34,193 nt of DNA from a virus (Duplodnaviria > Caudoviricetes): positions 1-34,193 of the IMG/VR virus record IMGVR_UViG_3300022863_000005; one strand, written 5' to 3'. The translations under genes were made by a program, and so were the position numbers. This document shows, one piece after another, positions 5,991-25,515 of this stretch. Below the pieces are notes generated by a model that had not been told where the DNA came from, searched no databases, and saw only the letters and a program-made list of their open reading frames with translations. Numbering within the stretch: position 1 is the stretch's first letter; each line of letters starts with the position of its first letter.

Positions 5991-7405
5991 GAGCGCGCTC
6001 CAATAAGCCAAGCGGGCAGTGTGGCCGGCTTGTCGGGATGATAGGTTTCAAGGATTTGCCGCGACTGGACGGCGCGAGCCATCGCCGCCGACATTTCGAC
6101 CTTCATGCGACCGTGATCGGCGCCCTTGCGGTTGACGTTGGCGACGATTTCCGCCTCGGTGTCGGCAACGACGATATGAGCCGTGACGGGCCGCTTTTGC
6201 CCGAAGCGCCAGAAGCGGCGCACGGCCTGATAAAAAGCCTCGTAGGAATGCGACAGGCCGCAGAATATCGTCACGTTGCAGTGTTGCCAGTTGAGGCCGA
6301 ATCCCGCGATCTTCGGCTTGGTCAGGATGATGCGGACTTCGCCCTTGGAGAAACCGTCCAGCAGTTCCTCCTTCCGGTCTGGCGACATGGAGCCATGAAC
6401 CTCGACGACACCCACCACGGCCTCGCGCACGGCATCGGCCTCGTAATCGGTATCAACCCAAATGCAGATCGGCGTCCCGTCGGGATAGCCGGAGACGATC
6501 TCCGCGACCTTGGCGGCGCGCGCCTTGGCCGTCAGCCGCTTCTCGCCATGAATTGCGGTCGCGGACCTGTCCGGGATGCGGAAAAGCCGAAGCTGTCCGC
6601 CGTTCTTTTCCTCGCCTGCGCTAACCGATCGATCCGCCGCGATGATATGGCGCTCGATCTTTAATTCCGGCAAAACGAACCCGTCGTCGGAAAAGCCCAG
6701 ATCGGATGGCTTGGAGACGCACCGCGCCCATGAGGCAACCCAATCCCAGAACGGGCGCACGGCAGGTTTCTTGAGCCGGTAGACGCCCGCGTTAGCCTGG
6801 TCGGCGATGAAAAACCGTGACAGCATTTCCGACGACGGCATGACGCCGAGGAAAGACGAGTGCTGTCCAAGCTCCGTGTGATCGTTGGGCGCGGGCGTGG
6901 CAGATCCTGCGAGGCGAAAGCGCGTCTGCGAAAAGGTATCGATCAGCTTGCGCGTCGTGACGCCCGTAAACGATTTCAGGATTGAGCTTTCGTCCAGGAT
7001 GACGCCGGCATAGTCGTGCGGATCGAACCGGTCTAGGCGCTCGTAATTAGTGATAACGATGCGCGGCGTTTCGGGCGGCGCGCCAAAGCGCGATATTTTC
7101 GCGTCGATGCCCATGCGATCGGCTTCGCGCACATGCTGCGCAGAGACCGCCAGCGGCGCCAGCATCAGGACGGGCTTGTTTTCCGCCTCGACGACGCAGC
7201 GCCCCCATTCCAGCATCATCGCGGTTTTGCCGAGGCCAGTGTCATAAAAAAGCGCATCGCGCCCGCCGCGAAGGGCAAACTCGACGCCGTGCCGCTGATG
7301 ATCGAACAGCGTCGAGTTGAGTTCGGGTGTGTGCGTCAGGCCATGCAGTAGGGCTTGCGGACGCTTGGAGGCGCATGCCGCGCGGTAAGCGGTCAGGTCG
7401 CTCAT
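5987..7405 (-). CDS. SNF2-like phage helicase
   Basis: LFDHQ, DTGLGKT, ITNYERL, ILDESS, SATPAPND, GFGLNWQ, QAVRRFWRFGQ. Confidence 0.86.
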   Translation of the reverse strand: MSDLTAYRAACASKRPQALLHGLTHTPELNSTLFDHQRHGVEFALRGGRDALFYDTGLGKTAMMLEWGRCVVEAENKPVLMLAPLAVSAQHVREADRMGIDAKISRFGAPPETPRIVITNYERLDRFDPHDYAGVILDESSILKSFTGVTTRKLIDTFSQTRFRLAGSATPAPNDHTELGQHSSFLGVMPSSEMLSRFFIADQANAGVYRLKKPAVRPFWDWVASWARCVSKPSDLGFSDDGFVLPELKIERHIIAADRSVSAGEEKNGGQLRLFRIPDRSATAIHGEKRLTAKARAAKVAEIVSGYPDGTPICIWVDTDYEADAVREAVVGVVEVHGSMSPDRKEELLDGFSKGEVRIILTKPKIAGFGLNWQHCNVTIFCGLSHSYEAFYQAVRRFWRFGQKRPVTAHIVVADTEAEIVANVNRKGADHGRMKVEMSAAMARAVQSRQILETYHPDKPATLPAWLIGARS

Positions 7406-7581: not shown

Positions 7582-8531
7582 GGCCGCAATCCCTCTTTGC
7601 TGTCGACGCCATCGGTCCAGAGCCTGCCGCCAACTACAAGGCGATAGGTTACGGTCGCGGCGTCTTCGTCGGCGTCGATCTGTTCGCCGGGCACGATGTC
7701 GGGAAGGAACAAGTGCGCAGGACAGGCCGCCTTCTGTTGCTCAAGCGTCAGCTCGGCGCCCGTCGATCCGCAGCGCCAGCGGCCTTCGCCCGTCAGCGTG
7801 ACGTGCAGGCATGTCCGGCAGTTGACGCGGGGGAAATCATCATAGCGGCAGACGCGCTCGTGCTTGCACCACTTGCAGGCGTAGCTTTCGATCTTGGCCG
7901 GCGGCCGATCCGACCATGCGATGCGTTCTGCCTTGACCGTCAGGCAGATGACGGCTTGCGGATCGATCTTGACGCGCTCGGTCTCGACTTCATCGGTGTT
8001 CTTGTTCACGGCCATGAACAGCGTGCGATCGATCCCATGCGCGGACATTCCGATCTGGACTTGCGCCCAATAAGTAGAGCTGAATTTTTCCAGGCCGAGC
8101 TTGCGCCATTTGGTGAAATTGGCATCGGACATCGTCTTGCATTCGACGATGTGCAGAGCCTTCGCGGCGCCAGGGATGCCCTTTGCCTTGGCGTCGAGCT
8201 TGGAGACGACGACGCCGTTGACGAAGGTCGCCTCCCATTGCTGGCGCGTGTTCGGATCTAGCGAGGCAACAGCGCAGCCGATGGCGCGCAGATCGTCCAG
8301 CATTCGGACTTCTTCGCGATGGCCGGTCTGGAAAAGCCGCAGCTTGCGGCCTTCGATTTTCTCATGAGGCGAGACCCATCGGAAGTCGTACCAGATCGCC
8401 CGGTCGCACTCCTTGCCGATGGACGAGGCGCCAATGCGCGCACTGTCTCGCGGCGTCTCGCTGGCCTCGTAGTGACGCTCAATCGCGAGCGCCACGGGGG
8501 ATTTTATGGCTTCGATCTTTGCCATAGTCAC
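7578..8531 (-). CDS. Cas4-like PD-(D/E)XK exonuclease with probable Fe-S cluster cysteines
   Basis: GASSIGKECDRAIWY, KLDA...IVECKT, YWAQVQ, CKWCKHERVC. Sits in the usual exonuclease/SSB/Sak4 recombination cluster. Confidence 0.8.
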   Translation of the reverse strand: MTMAKIEAIKSPVALAIERHYEASETPRDSARIGASSIGKECDRAIWYDFRWVSPHEKIEGRKLRLFQTGHREEVRMLDDLRAIGCAVASLDPNTRQQWEATFVNGVVVSKLDAKAKGIPGAAKALHIVECKTMSDANFTKWRKLGLEKFSSTYWAQVQIGMSAHGIDRTLFMAVNKNTDEVETERVKIDPQAVICLTVKAERIAWSDRPPAKIESYACKWCKHERVCRYDDFPRVNCRTCLHVTLTGEGRWRCGSTGAELTLEQQKAACPAHLFLPDIVPGEQIDADEDAATVTYRLVVGGRLWTDGVDSKEGLRP

Positions 8532-9353: not shown

Positions 9354-9374
9354 GGCCGGGCGCGAGGCCCGGCC
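9354..9374 (-). terminator. GC-rich hairpin downstream of the SSB-like gene (weak terminator or stability hairpin)
   Basis: GGCCGGGC-N5-GCCCGGCC. No clear U-tract. Confidence 0.33.
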
Positions 9375-9389
9375 TATGAGTTCAGAGGA

Positions 9390-11747: not shown

Positions 11748-11936
11748 TTGAGTGAACAGCGCGACGGGGCCACCAGCGAGACTTGGGGAAGCATCGGGGA
11801 GGTGGCGCGGCGATTGGTGAAAAGGCTCCTCAAAAGAGCCGGGGCCGAAGCCCCGGCAGTCAGGGAGGAAACGCCCAAGGAGGGCATATGTCCCGGCGAA
11901 CGCCGGAACCTGTGGAGCGCCACGCGGCGCGAATAG
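11748..11936 (+). CDS. Possible small protein antisense to the cro operon
   Basis: GGAGGA at 11738-11743 before a TTG start. Amphipathic WGSIGEVARRLVKRLL segment. Confidence 0.3.
   Translation: MSEQRDGATSETWGSIGEVARRLVKRLLKRAGAEAPAVREETPKEGICPGERRNLWSATRRE
11832..11857 (-). terminator. Intrinsic terminator in the cro operon (tR1-like)
   Basis: Minus strand GCCGGGGC-TTCG-GCCCCGGC followed by TCTTTT. Confidence 0.6.
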
Positions 11937-12482: not shown

Positions 12483-12594
12483 ACCAGTCCGGCCCTTTCG
12501 ATCCGATGAAATACTTCGGCCTCGCCTCTTCCCTTTTGCGGGCATCGCGGCAGGCTTTTTCGATGTCGAGGAGGAATTGCGTGTCGGCGCTCAT
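12328..12594 (-). CDS. Possible hypothetical protein coupled to cro (MSADTQFLLDIEK...)
   Basis: ATGA overlap with the cro stop. Its 3' half overlaps the plus-strand gene 12186-12482. Confidence 0.4.
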   Translation of the reverse strand: MSADTQFLLDIEKACRDARKREEARPKYFIGSKGPDWFIPAGGPLPRSKPDAQSQRDNVHRRPTFRPLPIQLTRKVYEVFARIFGGLR

Positions 12595-12809
12595 GCGGCG
12601 TCTCCCGTGACGGGCGAGCGCTCTTTTTTGACGAAGTCGTTCGCCATAACGGCGCCGTTCGTGGCCTCCGTTATCCGGCGCACGGTCTCCCAATCCGGGA
12701 GCGTTTCGCCGCGCCGGATTCGGCTGATTGTCGATTGGCTGCGTCCGATCATTTCGCCAAAGGCGCTGTCGGTGAGCTTTCGAGAGGTGAGGAATTCATC
12801 AAGTTTCAT
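12591..12809 (-). CDS. cro: Cro-like HTH regulator
   Basis: MKLDEFL...SAFGEMIGRSQSTISRIRRGETLPD...TNGAVMANDF. Divergent from the repressor. Confidence 0.85.
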   Translation of the reverse strand: MKLDEFLTSRKLTDSAFGEMIGRSQSTISRIRRGETLPDWETVRRITEATNGAVMANDFVKKERSPVTGDAA

Positions 12810-12816
12810 GTCGCGG

Positions 12817-12846
12817 ATGATGCGCCCCATGCATAATGCATGTCAA
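12817..12846 (-). promoter_or_regulatory. PR-like sigma70 promoter for cro
   Basis: TTGACA (12846-12841), then 17-18 bp, then GCATCAT. Confidence 0.65.
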
Positions 12847-12902: not shown

Positions 12903-13235
12903 ATGCCGCCCGTCAAAAAACCACTCCATCCCCGTACGCCGACATTCCTTCGCCAATGGAGGAAGTTCAAAAAGCTGACCCAGGATCAGGCGTCGGAGCG
13001 CGTCGAGATCGATCAGGCGACGCTTGGCCGAATCGAGCGCGGCGTGCTGCCCTATAATCAAGACTTGCTCGAAAGGCTTGCGCTCGCCTACGGCTGCGAC
13101 GTTTCCGATCTGCTTGACATCGATCCGCTAAAGCCCGATCCGCCGCGCCTCGTTTATGATAAATTGCGCCACGCTTCTCCGGCCATGCAAAAACGCGCAC
13201 TTGAGGTTTTGGAAGCTCTTTTAAAAGCCGGGTGA
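12903..13235 (+). CDS. cI: CI-like XRE-family repressor without a peptidase domain
   Basis: FLRQWRKFKKLTQDQASERVEIDQATLGRIERG HTH, 110 aa, divergent from cro. Confidence 0.85.
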   Translation: MPPVKKPLHPRTPTFLRQWRKFKKLTQDQASERVEIDQATLGRIERGVLPYNQDLLERLALAYGCDVSDLLDIDPLKPDPPRLVYDKLRHASPAMQKRALEVLEALLKAG

Positions 13236-13238
13236 TTT

Positions 13239-13643
13239 ATGAGAAATATTTTTCCGTTGATTTTTGTTTTGCTGGTTTCAGGATGCAATTCGACCGGAGT
13301 TACGCCAGCGGCGGACGTTCGGCAATTGTCCGCGCTTCCATCGACTTACCGCTCTATAATTGTGCAAAAAATTAAATCAGCGGCGAAAGACCCTTACAGC
13401 ATACGATCCGCTGAAATCGCTCTTCCAAAAATCGGTTTTGTTGGACTTTTCAATGGCGGGAACGCTGTTGTCGTCTGCGTTAGGTACAACGCCAAAAACT
13501 CATTTGGAGCCTACGTCGGCGTCGAGGATGTTCTTTTTGCATTCCGCGACGGCATGTTCCTCGGAATGCTGAACAACCATCCGCTGGCCTGCCAGGGCGG
13601 CGACATTTACGAGCCATTTCCAGAGCTAGAAAAAATTTCCTGA
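13239..13643 (+). CDS. Lipoprotein, candidate superinfection-exclusion or lysogenic conversion gene
   Basis: MRNIFPLIFVLLVSG-C lipobox, KDPYS...VCVRYNAKNSFGAYVG motif, AT-rich, 3 bp after the cI stop. Confidence 0.8.
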   Translation: MRNIFPLIFVLLVSGCNSTGVTPAADVRQLSALPSTYRSIIVQKIKSAAKDPYSIRSAEIALPKIGFVGLFNGGNAVVVCVRYNAKNSFGAYVGVEDVLFAFRDGMFLGMLNNHPLACQGGDIYEPFPELEKIS

Positions 13644-13696
13644 CAAGGATTTAACTCGCGCCTGTAGAGCGACCGGGAGCGCCCCTGCAAAATAAA

Positions 13697-13748
13697 ATGC
13701 ATGGGGCGCATTTTCCGCTTGACTGTCGATATGCATGGCGCGCATATT
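13697..13748 (+). promoter_or_regulatory. PL-like promoter with two operators (13697-13711, 13731-13745)
   Basis: TTGACT (13719-13724), 17-18 bp, GCATATT. Operators ATGCATGGGGCGCAT and ATGCATGGCGCGCAT. Confidence 0.8.
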
Positions 13749-13782
13749 CACTCCATCGAAACGCCAAACGATGGAGCCGAAA

Positions 13783-13863
13783 ATGGAAAACGAAAAAACC
13801 CTCAGCCAAGCCGCCGCCGAAACCCTCGCCGCCATCGAGGCGTACCTCGCGCAATTCGCATGA
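13783..13863 (+). CDS. 26-aa peptide MENEKTLSQAAAETLAAIEAYLAQFA (copy 1)
   Basis: GGAG RBS at 13773-13776. Paralogue at 24998-25078 differs only synonymously over codons 3-25. Confidence 0.8.
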   Translation: MENEKTLSQAAAETLAAIEAYLAQFA

Positions 13864-13870
13864 TCCAACA

Positions 13871-13895
13871 GCGGGGCTTCGGCCCCGCGCCTTTT
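13871..13895 (+). terminator. UUCG hairpin / weak terminator or attenuator after the peptide gene
   Basis: GCGGGGC-TTCG-GCCCCGC then GCCTTTT. Identical hairpin at 25087-25104. Confidence 0.6.
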
Positions 13896-13914
13896 CCCGC
13901 ATGGAGCACAAAGC

Positions 13915-14151
13915 ATGTCCACCAATATTGAAACCCTGACCATTGCCGAAGCGCGCGAAATTGCTGCGCTGTTCGGATCGCTTGCTAAATCCGAACCCGC
14001 GAAACAGTCAGCCCGCGTCGAGGGCGACAGCCGCCCCGTCATCGTCCGCGCGAAGGATGCGGGCGTCCACTTCGGCTATCTGACCGCATATGAGGGCCGC
14101 ATGGTCTACGGCTCCGGCTACGGCTACGGCTCCGGCTACGGAGATGACTGA
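13915..14151 (+). CDS. Hypothetical protein ending in YGSGYG repeats (possible deletion-fusion)
   Basis: GGAG RBS; VIVRAKDAGVHFGYL motif then an abrupt switch to YGSGYGYGSGYG. Confidence 0.62.
   Translation: MSTNIETLTIAEAREIAALFGSLAKSEPAKQSARVEGDSRPVIVRAKDAGVHFGYLTAYEGRMVYGSGYGYGSGYGDD
14107..14141. repeat. 18-bp tandem repeat built of TMCGGC hexamers
   Basis: TACGGCTCCGGCTACGGC TACGGCTCCGGCTACGG. Confidence 0.88.
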
Positions 14152-24557: not shown

Positions 24558-24916
24558 CAGATCGCCCAGGCCATGACGCAGGGCCACGCGGCTACTGCGA
24601 GGCCCTGCGGAGCCAGCGCCGCCCAGCGCGTGCCCGTGCAGATCGCCGCAGTCGCCTCGCCTCGCGAGCCCGTCAGGACAATGCCGACGTCGCCCCGCTT
24701 TGGGCTTTGTGTGGTCAAGAAGTCGGCCATTGTCTCCCTCGCCAGGGCCCGAACATCGACGCACGCCGGGTCGAATTCGCCCGTGCGCCAGCCTGCCGCC
24801 GGATCGTGCGCGGTCTGCGACACAATCCAGTCCGCGACCCAGATCATGCAATTCCGCCCGGACCAGTCGAACGCCTCGCCCGTTGCCGCGCGGAGGTAGG
24901 TTGTCAGGGCATCCAT
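24557..24916 (-). CDS. NlpC/P60-like tail assembly protein (DUF6950-like)
   Basis: FDWSGRNCMIWVADW, PKRGDVG; start MDALTTYL. Confidence 0.75.
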   Translation of the reverse strand: MDALTTYLRAATGEAFDWSGRNCMIWVADWIVSQTAHDPAAGWRTGEFDPACVDVRALARETMADFLTTQSPKRGDVGIVLTGSRGEATAAICTGTRWAALAPQGLAVAAWPCVMAWAI

Positions 24917-24927
24917 TATTTTTTCCG

Positions 24928-24973
24928 CATTTGTAAAAATAACGCTTGCATAAATTTCCAAATGTGTTAGTTT
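24928..24973 (+). promoter_or_regulatory. Promoter of the antisense cassette with a flanking inverted repeat
   Basis: AT-rich island; TTGCAT (24946-24951), TGnTAGTTT (24965-24973); IR CATTTGTAAA / TTTCCAAATG (24928-24937, 24955-24964). Confidence 0.58.
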
Positions 24974-24997
24974 TAATCATCGAAAGGGAGCAAGGAA

Positions 24998-25078
24998 ATG
25001 ACCAACGAAAAAACCCTCAGCCAAGCCGCCGCCGAAACTCTGGCCGCGATTGAAGCCTACCTCGCCCAATTCAAATGA
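24998..25078 (+). CDS. 26-aa peptide MTNEKTLSQAAAETLAAIEAYLAQFK (copy 2)
   Basis: GGGAG/AAGGA RBS; 24/26 aa identical to 13783-13863. Confidence 0.8.
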   Translation: MTNEKTLSQAAAETLAAIEAYLAQFK

Positions 25079-25086
25079 AACCAAAA

Positions 25087-25104
25087 GCGGGGCTTCGGCC
25101 CCGC
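25087..25104. repeat. UUCG hairpin identical to 13871-13888
   Basis: GCGGGGCTTCGGCCCCGC. On the minus strand it is followed by TTTTGGTTT. Confidence 0.85.
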
Positions 25105-25129
25105 CCTCCACTCAAACGGGAGCAAGCAA

Positions 25130-25297
25130 ATGTCCCCTAAAATGCAAATCGTCTGGCAAGTTCTTGAAGCAGCCAAAGACAATCGCGACGAAATGGTCAT
25201 CGCCGCTTGCCGCCGATTGATCGAAGCCAACCGCCTCGGATGGCGCAAGCATCACATTGCCGCCGATTACGACCTTGTTCAGGAATTGGCCCAATGA
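25130..25297 (+). CDS. Hypothetical 55-aa protein (MSPKMQIVWQVLEAAKDNRDEMVIAACRRLIEANRLGWRKHH...)
   Basis: GGGAG RBS; below the ORF-track cutoff; ATGA coupled to the HTH gene. Confidence 0.68.
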   Translation: MSPKMQIVWQVLEAAKDNRDEMVIAACRRLIEANRLGWRKHHIAADYDLVQELAQ

Positions 25298-25515
25298 CCC
25301 CCGCCGACTTCGCCGCCTTCGTCGCGCTCATGAAAGAGCGCGGCCTTTCCAAGGGCGACATCGCCACGCGCCTCGGCAAGCCGGCGAGCCGCATTTCCGA
25401 CTATCTGCGCGACGGCACAGACCAAACGATGGCGCTGGCCTGCGCGGCCCTCGCCGCCGGGCTTAAGCCGTGGCCCGCCCATCGGCGATCTACCAAGGCT
25501 GACGCAGCATCCTGA
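25294..25515 (+). CDS. Small HTH DNA-binding protein (MTPADFAAF...)
   Basis: GLSKGDIATRLGKPASRISDY HTH; ALACAALAAGL tail. Confidence 0.75.
   Translation: MTPADFAAFVALMKERGLSKGDIATRLGKPASRISDYLRDGTDQTMALACAALAAGLKPWPAHRRSTKADAAS

Follow-up and report, generated by a model that had tools for sequence, protein, structure and literature searches.

A conserved 26-codon phage gene with a common intergenic UUCG hairpin behaves as an optional plug-in behind promoters

Why should a temperate phage carry, behind two distant promoters, the same 26-codon open reading frame followed by the same UUCG hairpin? The question arises in a virus record of 34,193 bases, analysed as a whole stretch and called the window here. 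The initial annotation saw in this arrangement a candidate two-copy regulatory system, and proposed three ways in which it might work: a ribosome-coupled attenuator, an effector with one copy under CI control and one outside it (a trigger with positive feedback), or a portable cassette. We think that the unit is best described as a conserved small gene joined to a common intergenic hairpin and placed first behind promoters, and that its product would be a short, host-binding helical protein made early; from the sequence comparisons and the structural model presented below, we give this reading a probability of about one half.

The genome is of the temperate siphophage type. Its tail and lysis genes are encoded on the minus strand, the neighbouring genes cro (12594-12830) and cI (12903-13235) point away from each other, and an excisionase and an integrase close the early operon. 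The closest relatives of the repressor among named genomes are alphaproteobacterial, and the runs that hold the phage are peat and freshwater metagenomes. The start of cro is probably an ATG at 12809, just past the -10 (12817) of its promoter, which would leave this gene (12594-12809, minus strand) leaderless. The two units are made up as follows:

13783-13863, plus strand: peptide gene copy 1, 26 aa, net charge -3 (translation and comparison)
13871-13888, plus strand: hairpin copy 1, 7-bp C(UUCG)G, with a weak U tract after it
24998-25078, plus strand: peptide gene copy 2, 26 aa, net charge -1; codon 7 polymorphic (Leu/Ile)
25087-25104, plus strand: hairpin copy 2, identical C(UUCG)G, with no U tract

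Both translations are as the initial annotation gave them, and so is the count of differences between the copies: seven nucleotides across codons 3-25, every one a synonymous third position, located in codons 14-23. The identity of codons 3-13 holds in this haplotype but fails in record G001, which has Ile at codon 7. The residues that are unlike between the copies are those of codon 2 (E/T) and codon 26 (A/K), and the repeat formed by the peptide copies (83 nt, 86%) is the longest in the window. With a synonymous share of possible changes of 0.23-0.29, the probability of seven synonymous changes out of seven under neutrality is 4e-5 to 1.6e-4, and it rises to 2.5e-4 to 1e-3 when the Leu7Ile allele is included. 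In copy 2 a stop interrupts the antisense frame with which the third positions are shared. Synonymous-only divergence, combined with a core kept invariant across divergent homologues, requires selection at the amino-acid level, so that the earlier claim of selection on the peptide is supported.

Two other parts of the original description need qualification. The peptide was called unannotated, and indeed no family is given for it, but a protein collection lists both as genes, copy 2 with 26 aa and copy 1 in a 30-aa form. The motif CATCGAAA, reported from each leader, does lie ahead of both copies (13754 and 24978), but it is also found at three further sites of the window (14175, 25747 and, on the minus strand, 12558). 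Neither peptide ORF contains a run of rare codons. Contigs from two RNA libraries contain the unit: X10 is an exact match to 13768-13923, and X9 spans copy 2 up to 25105, plus 13863-14135. Such contigs speak for presence only and are silent on strand, level and ends. Their limits (the stop of X9 at 25105 and its start at 13863, the start of X10 at 13768, the uncovered 13236-13704) were excluded as evidence because they are contig-derived, because they are unlike between the two studies, and because reverse transcriptase stops at such hairpins (according to the accessible part of PMC8948821).

Outside the window the family is tiny and narrowly distributed, with three homologous proteins (P0006, P0007 and P0010; 26-28 aa counted from the last Met). 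In 6/6 full sequences the motif AAAxTLAAIEAYLAQF, which takes up 16 of the last 20 positions, is invariant except at x (position 13). Variation is found at positions 7-9 and 13, at the last residue, and in the length and sequence of the N terminus; a partial allele from run X4 has Asp in place of Glu19. In P0006 and P0007 the gene calls include N-terminal extensions that resemble, in translation, the leaders of copy 1 and copy 2 respectively, so that both genes are likely first behind these two leader types as well; in P0006 a leader of the copy-1 type precedes a peptide like that of copy 2. AlphaFold predicts a single helix, L7-A23, with a mean pLDDT of 86. The hydrophobic moment of residues 7-25 is above that of 96% of shuffles (p 0.04), the amphipathicity of the peptide as a whole being modest (p 0.07 and 0.21).

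A profile search of 1.84 billion proteins gave 4 matches only, and P0008 and P0009, which are repeat proteins, were removed. The peptide has no family match in PHROGs, NCBIfam or PADLOC and no match in the ESM Atlas; none was found in annotated phages and plasmids, where DNA searches returned only short chance pieces. Degenerate patterns recovered, from viral contigs, the same phage and chance matches inside longer ORFs (L011, L025, L167, L168), from metagenome contigs two loci only, equal to the window's own copies, and from genome contigs no match. Genome HMM searches at loose thresholds gave 5/401 matches at order level, 1/401 at class level and 0/87 at family level, all judged to be chance. 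The motif AIEAYLAQF is absent from the paper texts searched, though supplements (small-gene catalogues, for example) could list it, and the family appears to be undescribed.

One might argue that so narrow a distribution betrays a near-neutral translation primer or a remnant, a short ORF that merely loads ribosomes and whose copies are similar by recent common descent, all the more so as first slots at related loci are filled by many unrelated small genes. We regard this as quite improbable in view of the coding constraint described above, and no longer parent protein was found among 94 candidates of 82-2000 aa (a weak test). Another idea, mimicry of a host ScpB helix by which the peptide would disturb the SMC-ScpAB complex, comes from its sole Pfam match (E 0.08-0.09, residues 3-18), from its best PDB match (E 0.99) and from the ScpB-like nature of 2/5 genome matches. 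All these scores are below threshold: SMC_ScpB (PF04079) reaches 12.9 bits over 16 residues, against a threshold of 27.4 bits over the domain, and 5 matches in 401 genomes at E <= 0.01 is the chance level. Moreover, the L003 allele, P0006, P0007 and P0010 have no Pfam match, the ScpB-like residues (L7, S8, Q9, E13) vary, and the invariant C-terminal half is left unmatched, all of which makes ScpB mimicry very hard to believe.

Copy 2 lies in a cassette whose further elements are:

24900-25488, plus strand: insertion (moron), antisense within the tail operon
24946-24973, plus strand: putative cassette promoter, read by eye; GC here is 35%, and the inverted repeats are imperfect
24980-25003, plus strand: left 24-nt RBS/start repeat (83%; 88% in the L003 allele)
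25112-25135, plus strand: right 24-nt RBS/start repeat, period 132
25130-25297, plus strand: ORF55, a predicted three-helix protein
25294-25515, plus strand: XRE-type HTH gene (Pfam HTH_3, E 9e-5), which closes the cassette

A contig from run X4 departs from the window at 24899, shows 12 other bases and resumes the window sequence from 25489; since the tail genes of this relative run on without the segment 24900-25488, the cassette is an insertion. It thus separates two genes that are neighbours in a related phage, as morons do. It resembles the phage morons of PMC4378225 (as far as the consulted part of that paper describes them) in its AT-rich promoter stretch and possibly in having a promoter of its own, but it has three genes rather than one, no clear terminator, and a first gene that also occurs in the early operon. 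The promoter, TTGCAT-16-TAGTTT, agrees with consensus at 8/12 positions by eye and was unlisted in the consensus scan; no plus-strand terminator-like site is listed at the end of the cassette. With acr-aca operons (PMC9410906, in excerpt) the cassette shares small genes and an HTH gene (25294-25515) that ends the operon; the inverted repeats at its putative promoter are imperfect, and it has no match to an Acr or Aca family. That absence of homology holds for PHROGs, Pfam, NCBIfam and PADLOC, libraries that cover Acr and Aca families incompletely.

The cassette also exists without the peptide. Locus L170 has promoter, palindrome, ORF55 and HTH gene in the same order with neither peptide nor hairpin, and the inverted-repeat arms at its promoter form a perfect 8-bp pair, those of the window cassette being imperfect only. 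Among 11 other viral ORF55 loci (7 distinct) none has the peptide or the hairpin, and ORF55 homologues stand first behind a promoter in 5/7 distinct loci, by reading. ORF55 and the HTH protein have no match in the annotated phages searched; for ORF55, a fold search gave no match at E <= 0.001 and the ESM Atlas leads to unnamed clusters only. Distant ORF55 homologues (L171-L178) are found in apparently chromosomal settings in 7/401 genomes, besides the cassette-type L170. A low-depth X4 contig (depth about 3) that matches 25299-25329 has the start of the HTH gene in another context; it may belong, together with the contig of the third peptide allele, which has equal depth, to one cassette of another phage.

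How did the two copies come to be so similar? Record G001 is the same phage (99.975% over 20 kb); of the 5 differences counted over this length, copy 2 holds 3, and in run X3 both alleles are present. The close relative in X4, which has no tail cassette, carries at its early promoter an allele with 4 listed coding differences from copy 2, and with 5 listed synonymous differences from copy 1 besides codon 2: it has a copy-2-like start, the codons 15-20 of copy 2 and a copy-1-like end. A relative that has no cassette, and whose early allele nevertheless resembles copy 2, suggests two circulating alleles, and the copies are best read as members of a recombining pool rather than as a co-evolved pair. 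On a third phage contig, likewise from run X4, the promoter ahead of the unit, its palindrome and the gene that follows are all different. In the window, repeats of RBS/start sequence bracket the unit on both occasions (24 nt with period 132 in the cassette, 12 nt with period 130 in the early operon). On present comparisons, it behaves as an optional plug-in of about 130 bp.

Among the three original alternatives, the portable cassette is therefore the best fit to the X4 insertion, to L170 without the unit and to the bracketing repeats. The PeSL cassettes of T4-type phages offer a parallel: elements made of a promoter, a stem-loop and an RBS are repeated in about 50 copies in front of small variable genes, and these elements are likely recombination points (PMC2839356, as far as the portion consulted goes). 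The PeSL stem-loop precedes the RBS, within the promoter or beside it, whereas the stem-loop of the window comes after a conserved ORF, exists in two copies and belongs to a temperate siphophage-type genome.

The hairpin itself is the same 18 nt in both units, 7 nt past the stop of copy 1 and 8 nt past that of copy 2, as first reported. Of the next 10 nt, 4 are U after copy 1 and 2 after copy 2, and neither site is listed as a plus-strand terminator; the peptide unit has no terminator hairpin with a U tract of the kind expected of an attenuator. The exact 18-mer is estimated to occur in about 830 viral stretches. Among 114 distinct hairpin loci with enough upstream DNA, an open frame of at least 55 codons ends within 15 nt before the hairpin in 86 (median 8 nt); an RBS and ATG follow the hairpin in 51 of those 86, 36 of them without a U tract. 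The core pattern of the peptide was found in 0/121 hairpin loci. A hairpin so common at the usual spacing means that 7-8 nt after a stop is no special mark of ribosome coupling, and we cannot follow the initial annotation in taking the hairpin as selected for partnership with the peptide, when the same 18-mer trails unrelated ORFs at equal spacing in many phages. Hairpins of this type are common between phage genes and their roles include mRNA stabilisation (PMC8948821, citing Tuerk 1988); in loop, closing pair and intergenic position the window hairpin resembles the intercistronic C(UUCG)G hairpins covered in the accessible part of that paper, and has no trait to distinguish it. A third hairpin of the same core is found in the leftward operon of the window (11838-11857, minus strand); this 8-bp UUCG hairpin, with a U tract after it and a pyrimidine-rich motif before it, is likely an intrinsic terminator.

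Could the peptide nevertheless act in cis, its translation or its stalling near the stop setting hairpin formation and so tuning the downstream gene? Leader and arrest peptides such as TrpL, TnaC and SecM are short first ORFs with C-terminal conservation and a hairpin after the stop, and in arrest peptides the conservation reaches the stop codon; lambda CIII is helical. The window peptide is likewise a short first ORF with C-terminal conservation and a hairpin, helical as CIII is, and its invariant residues adjoin the stop codon. Hairpin and peptide occur together in 4/4 of the DNA contexts examined, as one would expect of a cis function too. Furthermore, codons 8-12 are able to pair with the 5' arm and loop of the hairpin (-20.2 kcal/mol), a pairing matched by 3-5% of synonymous recodings and in 4/117 unrelated loci, and the hairpin probability in copy 1 drops to 0.32-0.85 if the RNA begins at 13752, though for this start only. 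For starts at 13754-13756 it is 0.94-0.99, and with tetraloop energies it is 0.99-1.0 in both copy-2 alleles. A second parameter set gave identical numbers, so that effectively one set stands behind these probabilities; folds made with T-lettered sequence had missed the tetraloop bonus (-14.5 vs -15.4), and the near-zero gap that they gave for copy 1 is superseded. The nascent 5' arm has unlike pairing partners in the two copies, upstream pairing is also found in most unrelated loci (median 0.81), no competing fold common to both copies was found, and melting of the 5' arm still does not free the downstream RBS. Compared with TrpL, TnaC and SecM, the unit has no evident regulatory codon run and, in the folds made, no terminator-antiterminator pair shared by the copies, and its downstream genes are unrelated, ORF55 and HTH existing as a cassette without it. 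Neither these three peptides nor CIII has a sequence match to the window peptide in Pfam or NCBIfam, and Rfam gave nothing at gathering level, its one chance match lying off the unit. The proposed attenuator thus keeps a borderline competing pairing but faces a hairpin that dominates in copy 2, and we think that a cis-acting leader peptide is unlikely. As for the two-copy regulatory system, a common hairpin, the lack of a shared competing fold and the circulation of the copies as alleles leave the case for it weak.

The surroundings of copy 1 bear on another possibility, a role in the choice between lysis and lysogeny:

12903-13235, plus strand: CI-like repressor, 110 aa (PHROG transcriptional repressor matches, E 2.5e-9)
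13697-13711: operator-like site, ATGC-N7-GCAT
13719-13748, plus strand: predicted PL-like early promoter, TTGACT-18-CATATT, of putative function
13731-13745: second operator-like site, in the promoter spacer
13751-13776, plus strand: 8-bp inverted repeat, located at the predicted 5' end and sharing bases with the RBS (GGAG)
13901-13912, plus strand: RBS of the next gene, a 10-of-12 repeat of 13771-13782 (period 130)
13915-14151, plus strand: DUF6948-like ORF, apparently truncated (Pfam E 1.5e-4, below cut-off)

At 14107 the DUF6948-like ORF passes into a tail of Gly-Tyr-Gly repeats; from this point its X4 relative goes on with other sequence. The four ATGC-N7-GCAT sites all belong to the two promoters on either side of cI, and the tail cassette has none (at least four such sites, anywhere, occur in 6/100 shuffles). 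Because these sites are confined to the promoters that flank cI, CI is likely to control copy 1 but not copy 2. In related phages (L026, L029) early transcripts also start with a CCATC...GATGG stem touching the first RBS, with very different loop lengths, and the stem of the window (13751-13776) is possibly a conserved leader structure.

A small acidic helix encoded first in an operator-flanked early operon could be an antirepressor of the phage's own CI or a CIII-like protease inhibitor, and small-protein antirepressors indeed lack mutual homology (PMC10432266 and PMC11323111, in the parts consulted). As in the TF-smORF antirepressor modules of temperate phages, a small protein gene lies near a transcription-factor gene, but the HTH gene of the window is downstream and co-transcribed, and its cassette exists without the peptide (the comparison draws on an excerpt of PMC10432266). 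In related repressor loci (45-88% identity), another first gene stands behind the matching promoter in 7/7 examined, three of the 10 loci returned (L032, L034, L035) having been excluded for a short contig or a weak match, and the peptide has no convincing match in six whole records of such loci. The unit is also found behind a promoter with a different palindrome, the second copy is missing in a close relative, and an antirepressor outside CI control would need further control to permit lysogeny. Nothing was found that points to CI or to a protease as the target. We consider a lysis-lysogeny role rather unlikely; the trigger-plus-feedback form of the effector proposed by the initial annotation is weakened by the relative that has no tail cassette and by the 7/7 repressor loci that have no peptide at their early promoter, but a helix acting in trans stays likely.

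The conserved gene with its common hairpin, placed first behind promoters, is the reading that we prefer, and it would work as follows. The unit would move by recombination at the repeated RBS/start sequences, and copy 2 would have been acquired from a related phage as part of the tail moron, and not through duplication in place. The peptide would be expressed at once and strongly after infection or induction, and the helix L7-F25 could bind a host protein through its hydrophobic face (L7, A11, L15, I18, L22, F25), for counter-defence or host takeover. The HTH protein may repress the cassette promoter, as Aca proteins do, and the hairpin would protect the mRNA or reduce read-through, with no switching.

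A bolder version is offered tentatively, as a possibility with the odds against it: the 26-residue helix may be a new counter-defence micro-protein of alphaproteobacterial phages, a 130-bp plug-in set first behind any strong promoter, an Aca-like autoregulated moron included, so that the peptide appears almost as soon as the DNA enters the cell and perhaps, by way of the CI-independent copy, in the lysogen as well. No family, fold or literature match supports a counter-defence role. Much of the picture is already familiar, namely the moron, the intergenic UUCG hairpin, the variable first slot and the small accessory early gene. What the peptide adds is a small family with clear coding constraint, cheap to synthesise and to assay. 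Should it prove to be a counter-defence or takeover factor, it would probably be one of the shortest effectors of any phage, and in alphaproteobacterial phages such genes could be sought by guilt by association with the promoter-ORF55-HTH cassette.

Two minor observations may be added. In the viral loci L056 and L070 the 18-nt hairpin occurs twice, 217-263 nt apart, each time followed by a near-identical spacer and RBS; these are, to judge from their sequence, small-gene arrays punctuated by the hairpin. Finally, the differences between record G001 and the window are clustered at 6557-6629 (22 within 73 bases), 7929-7940 and 9363-9380, the two being near-identical elsewhere, which suggests recombination tracts in the helicase and exonuclease region.
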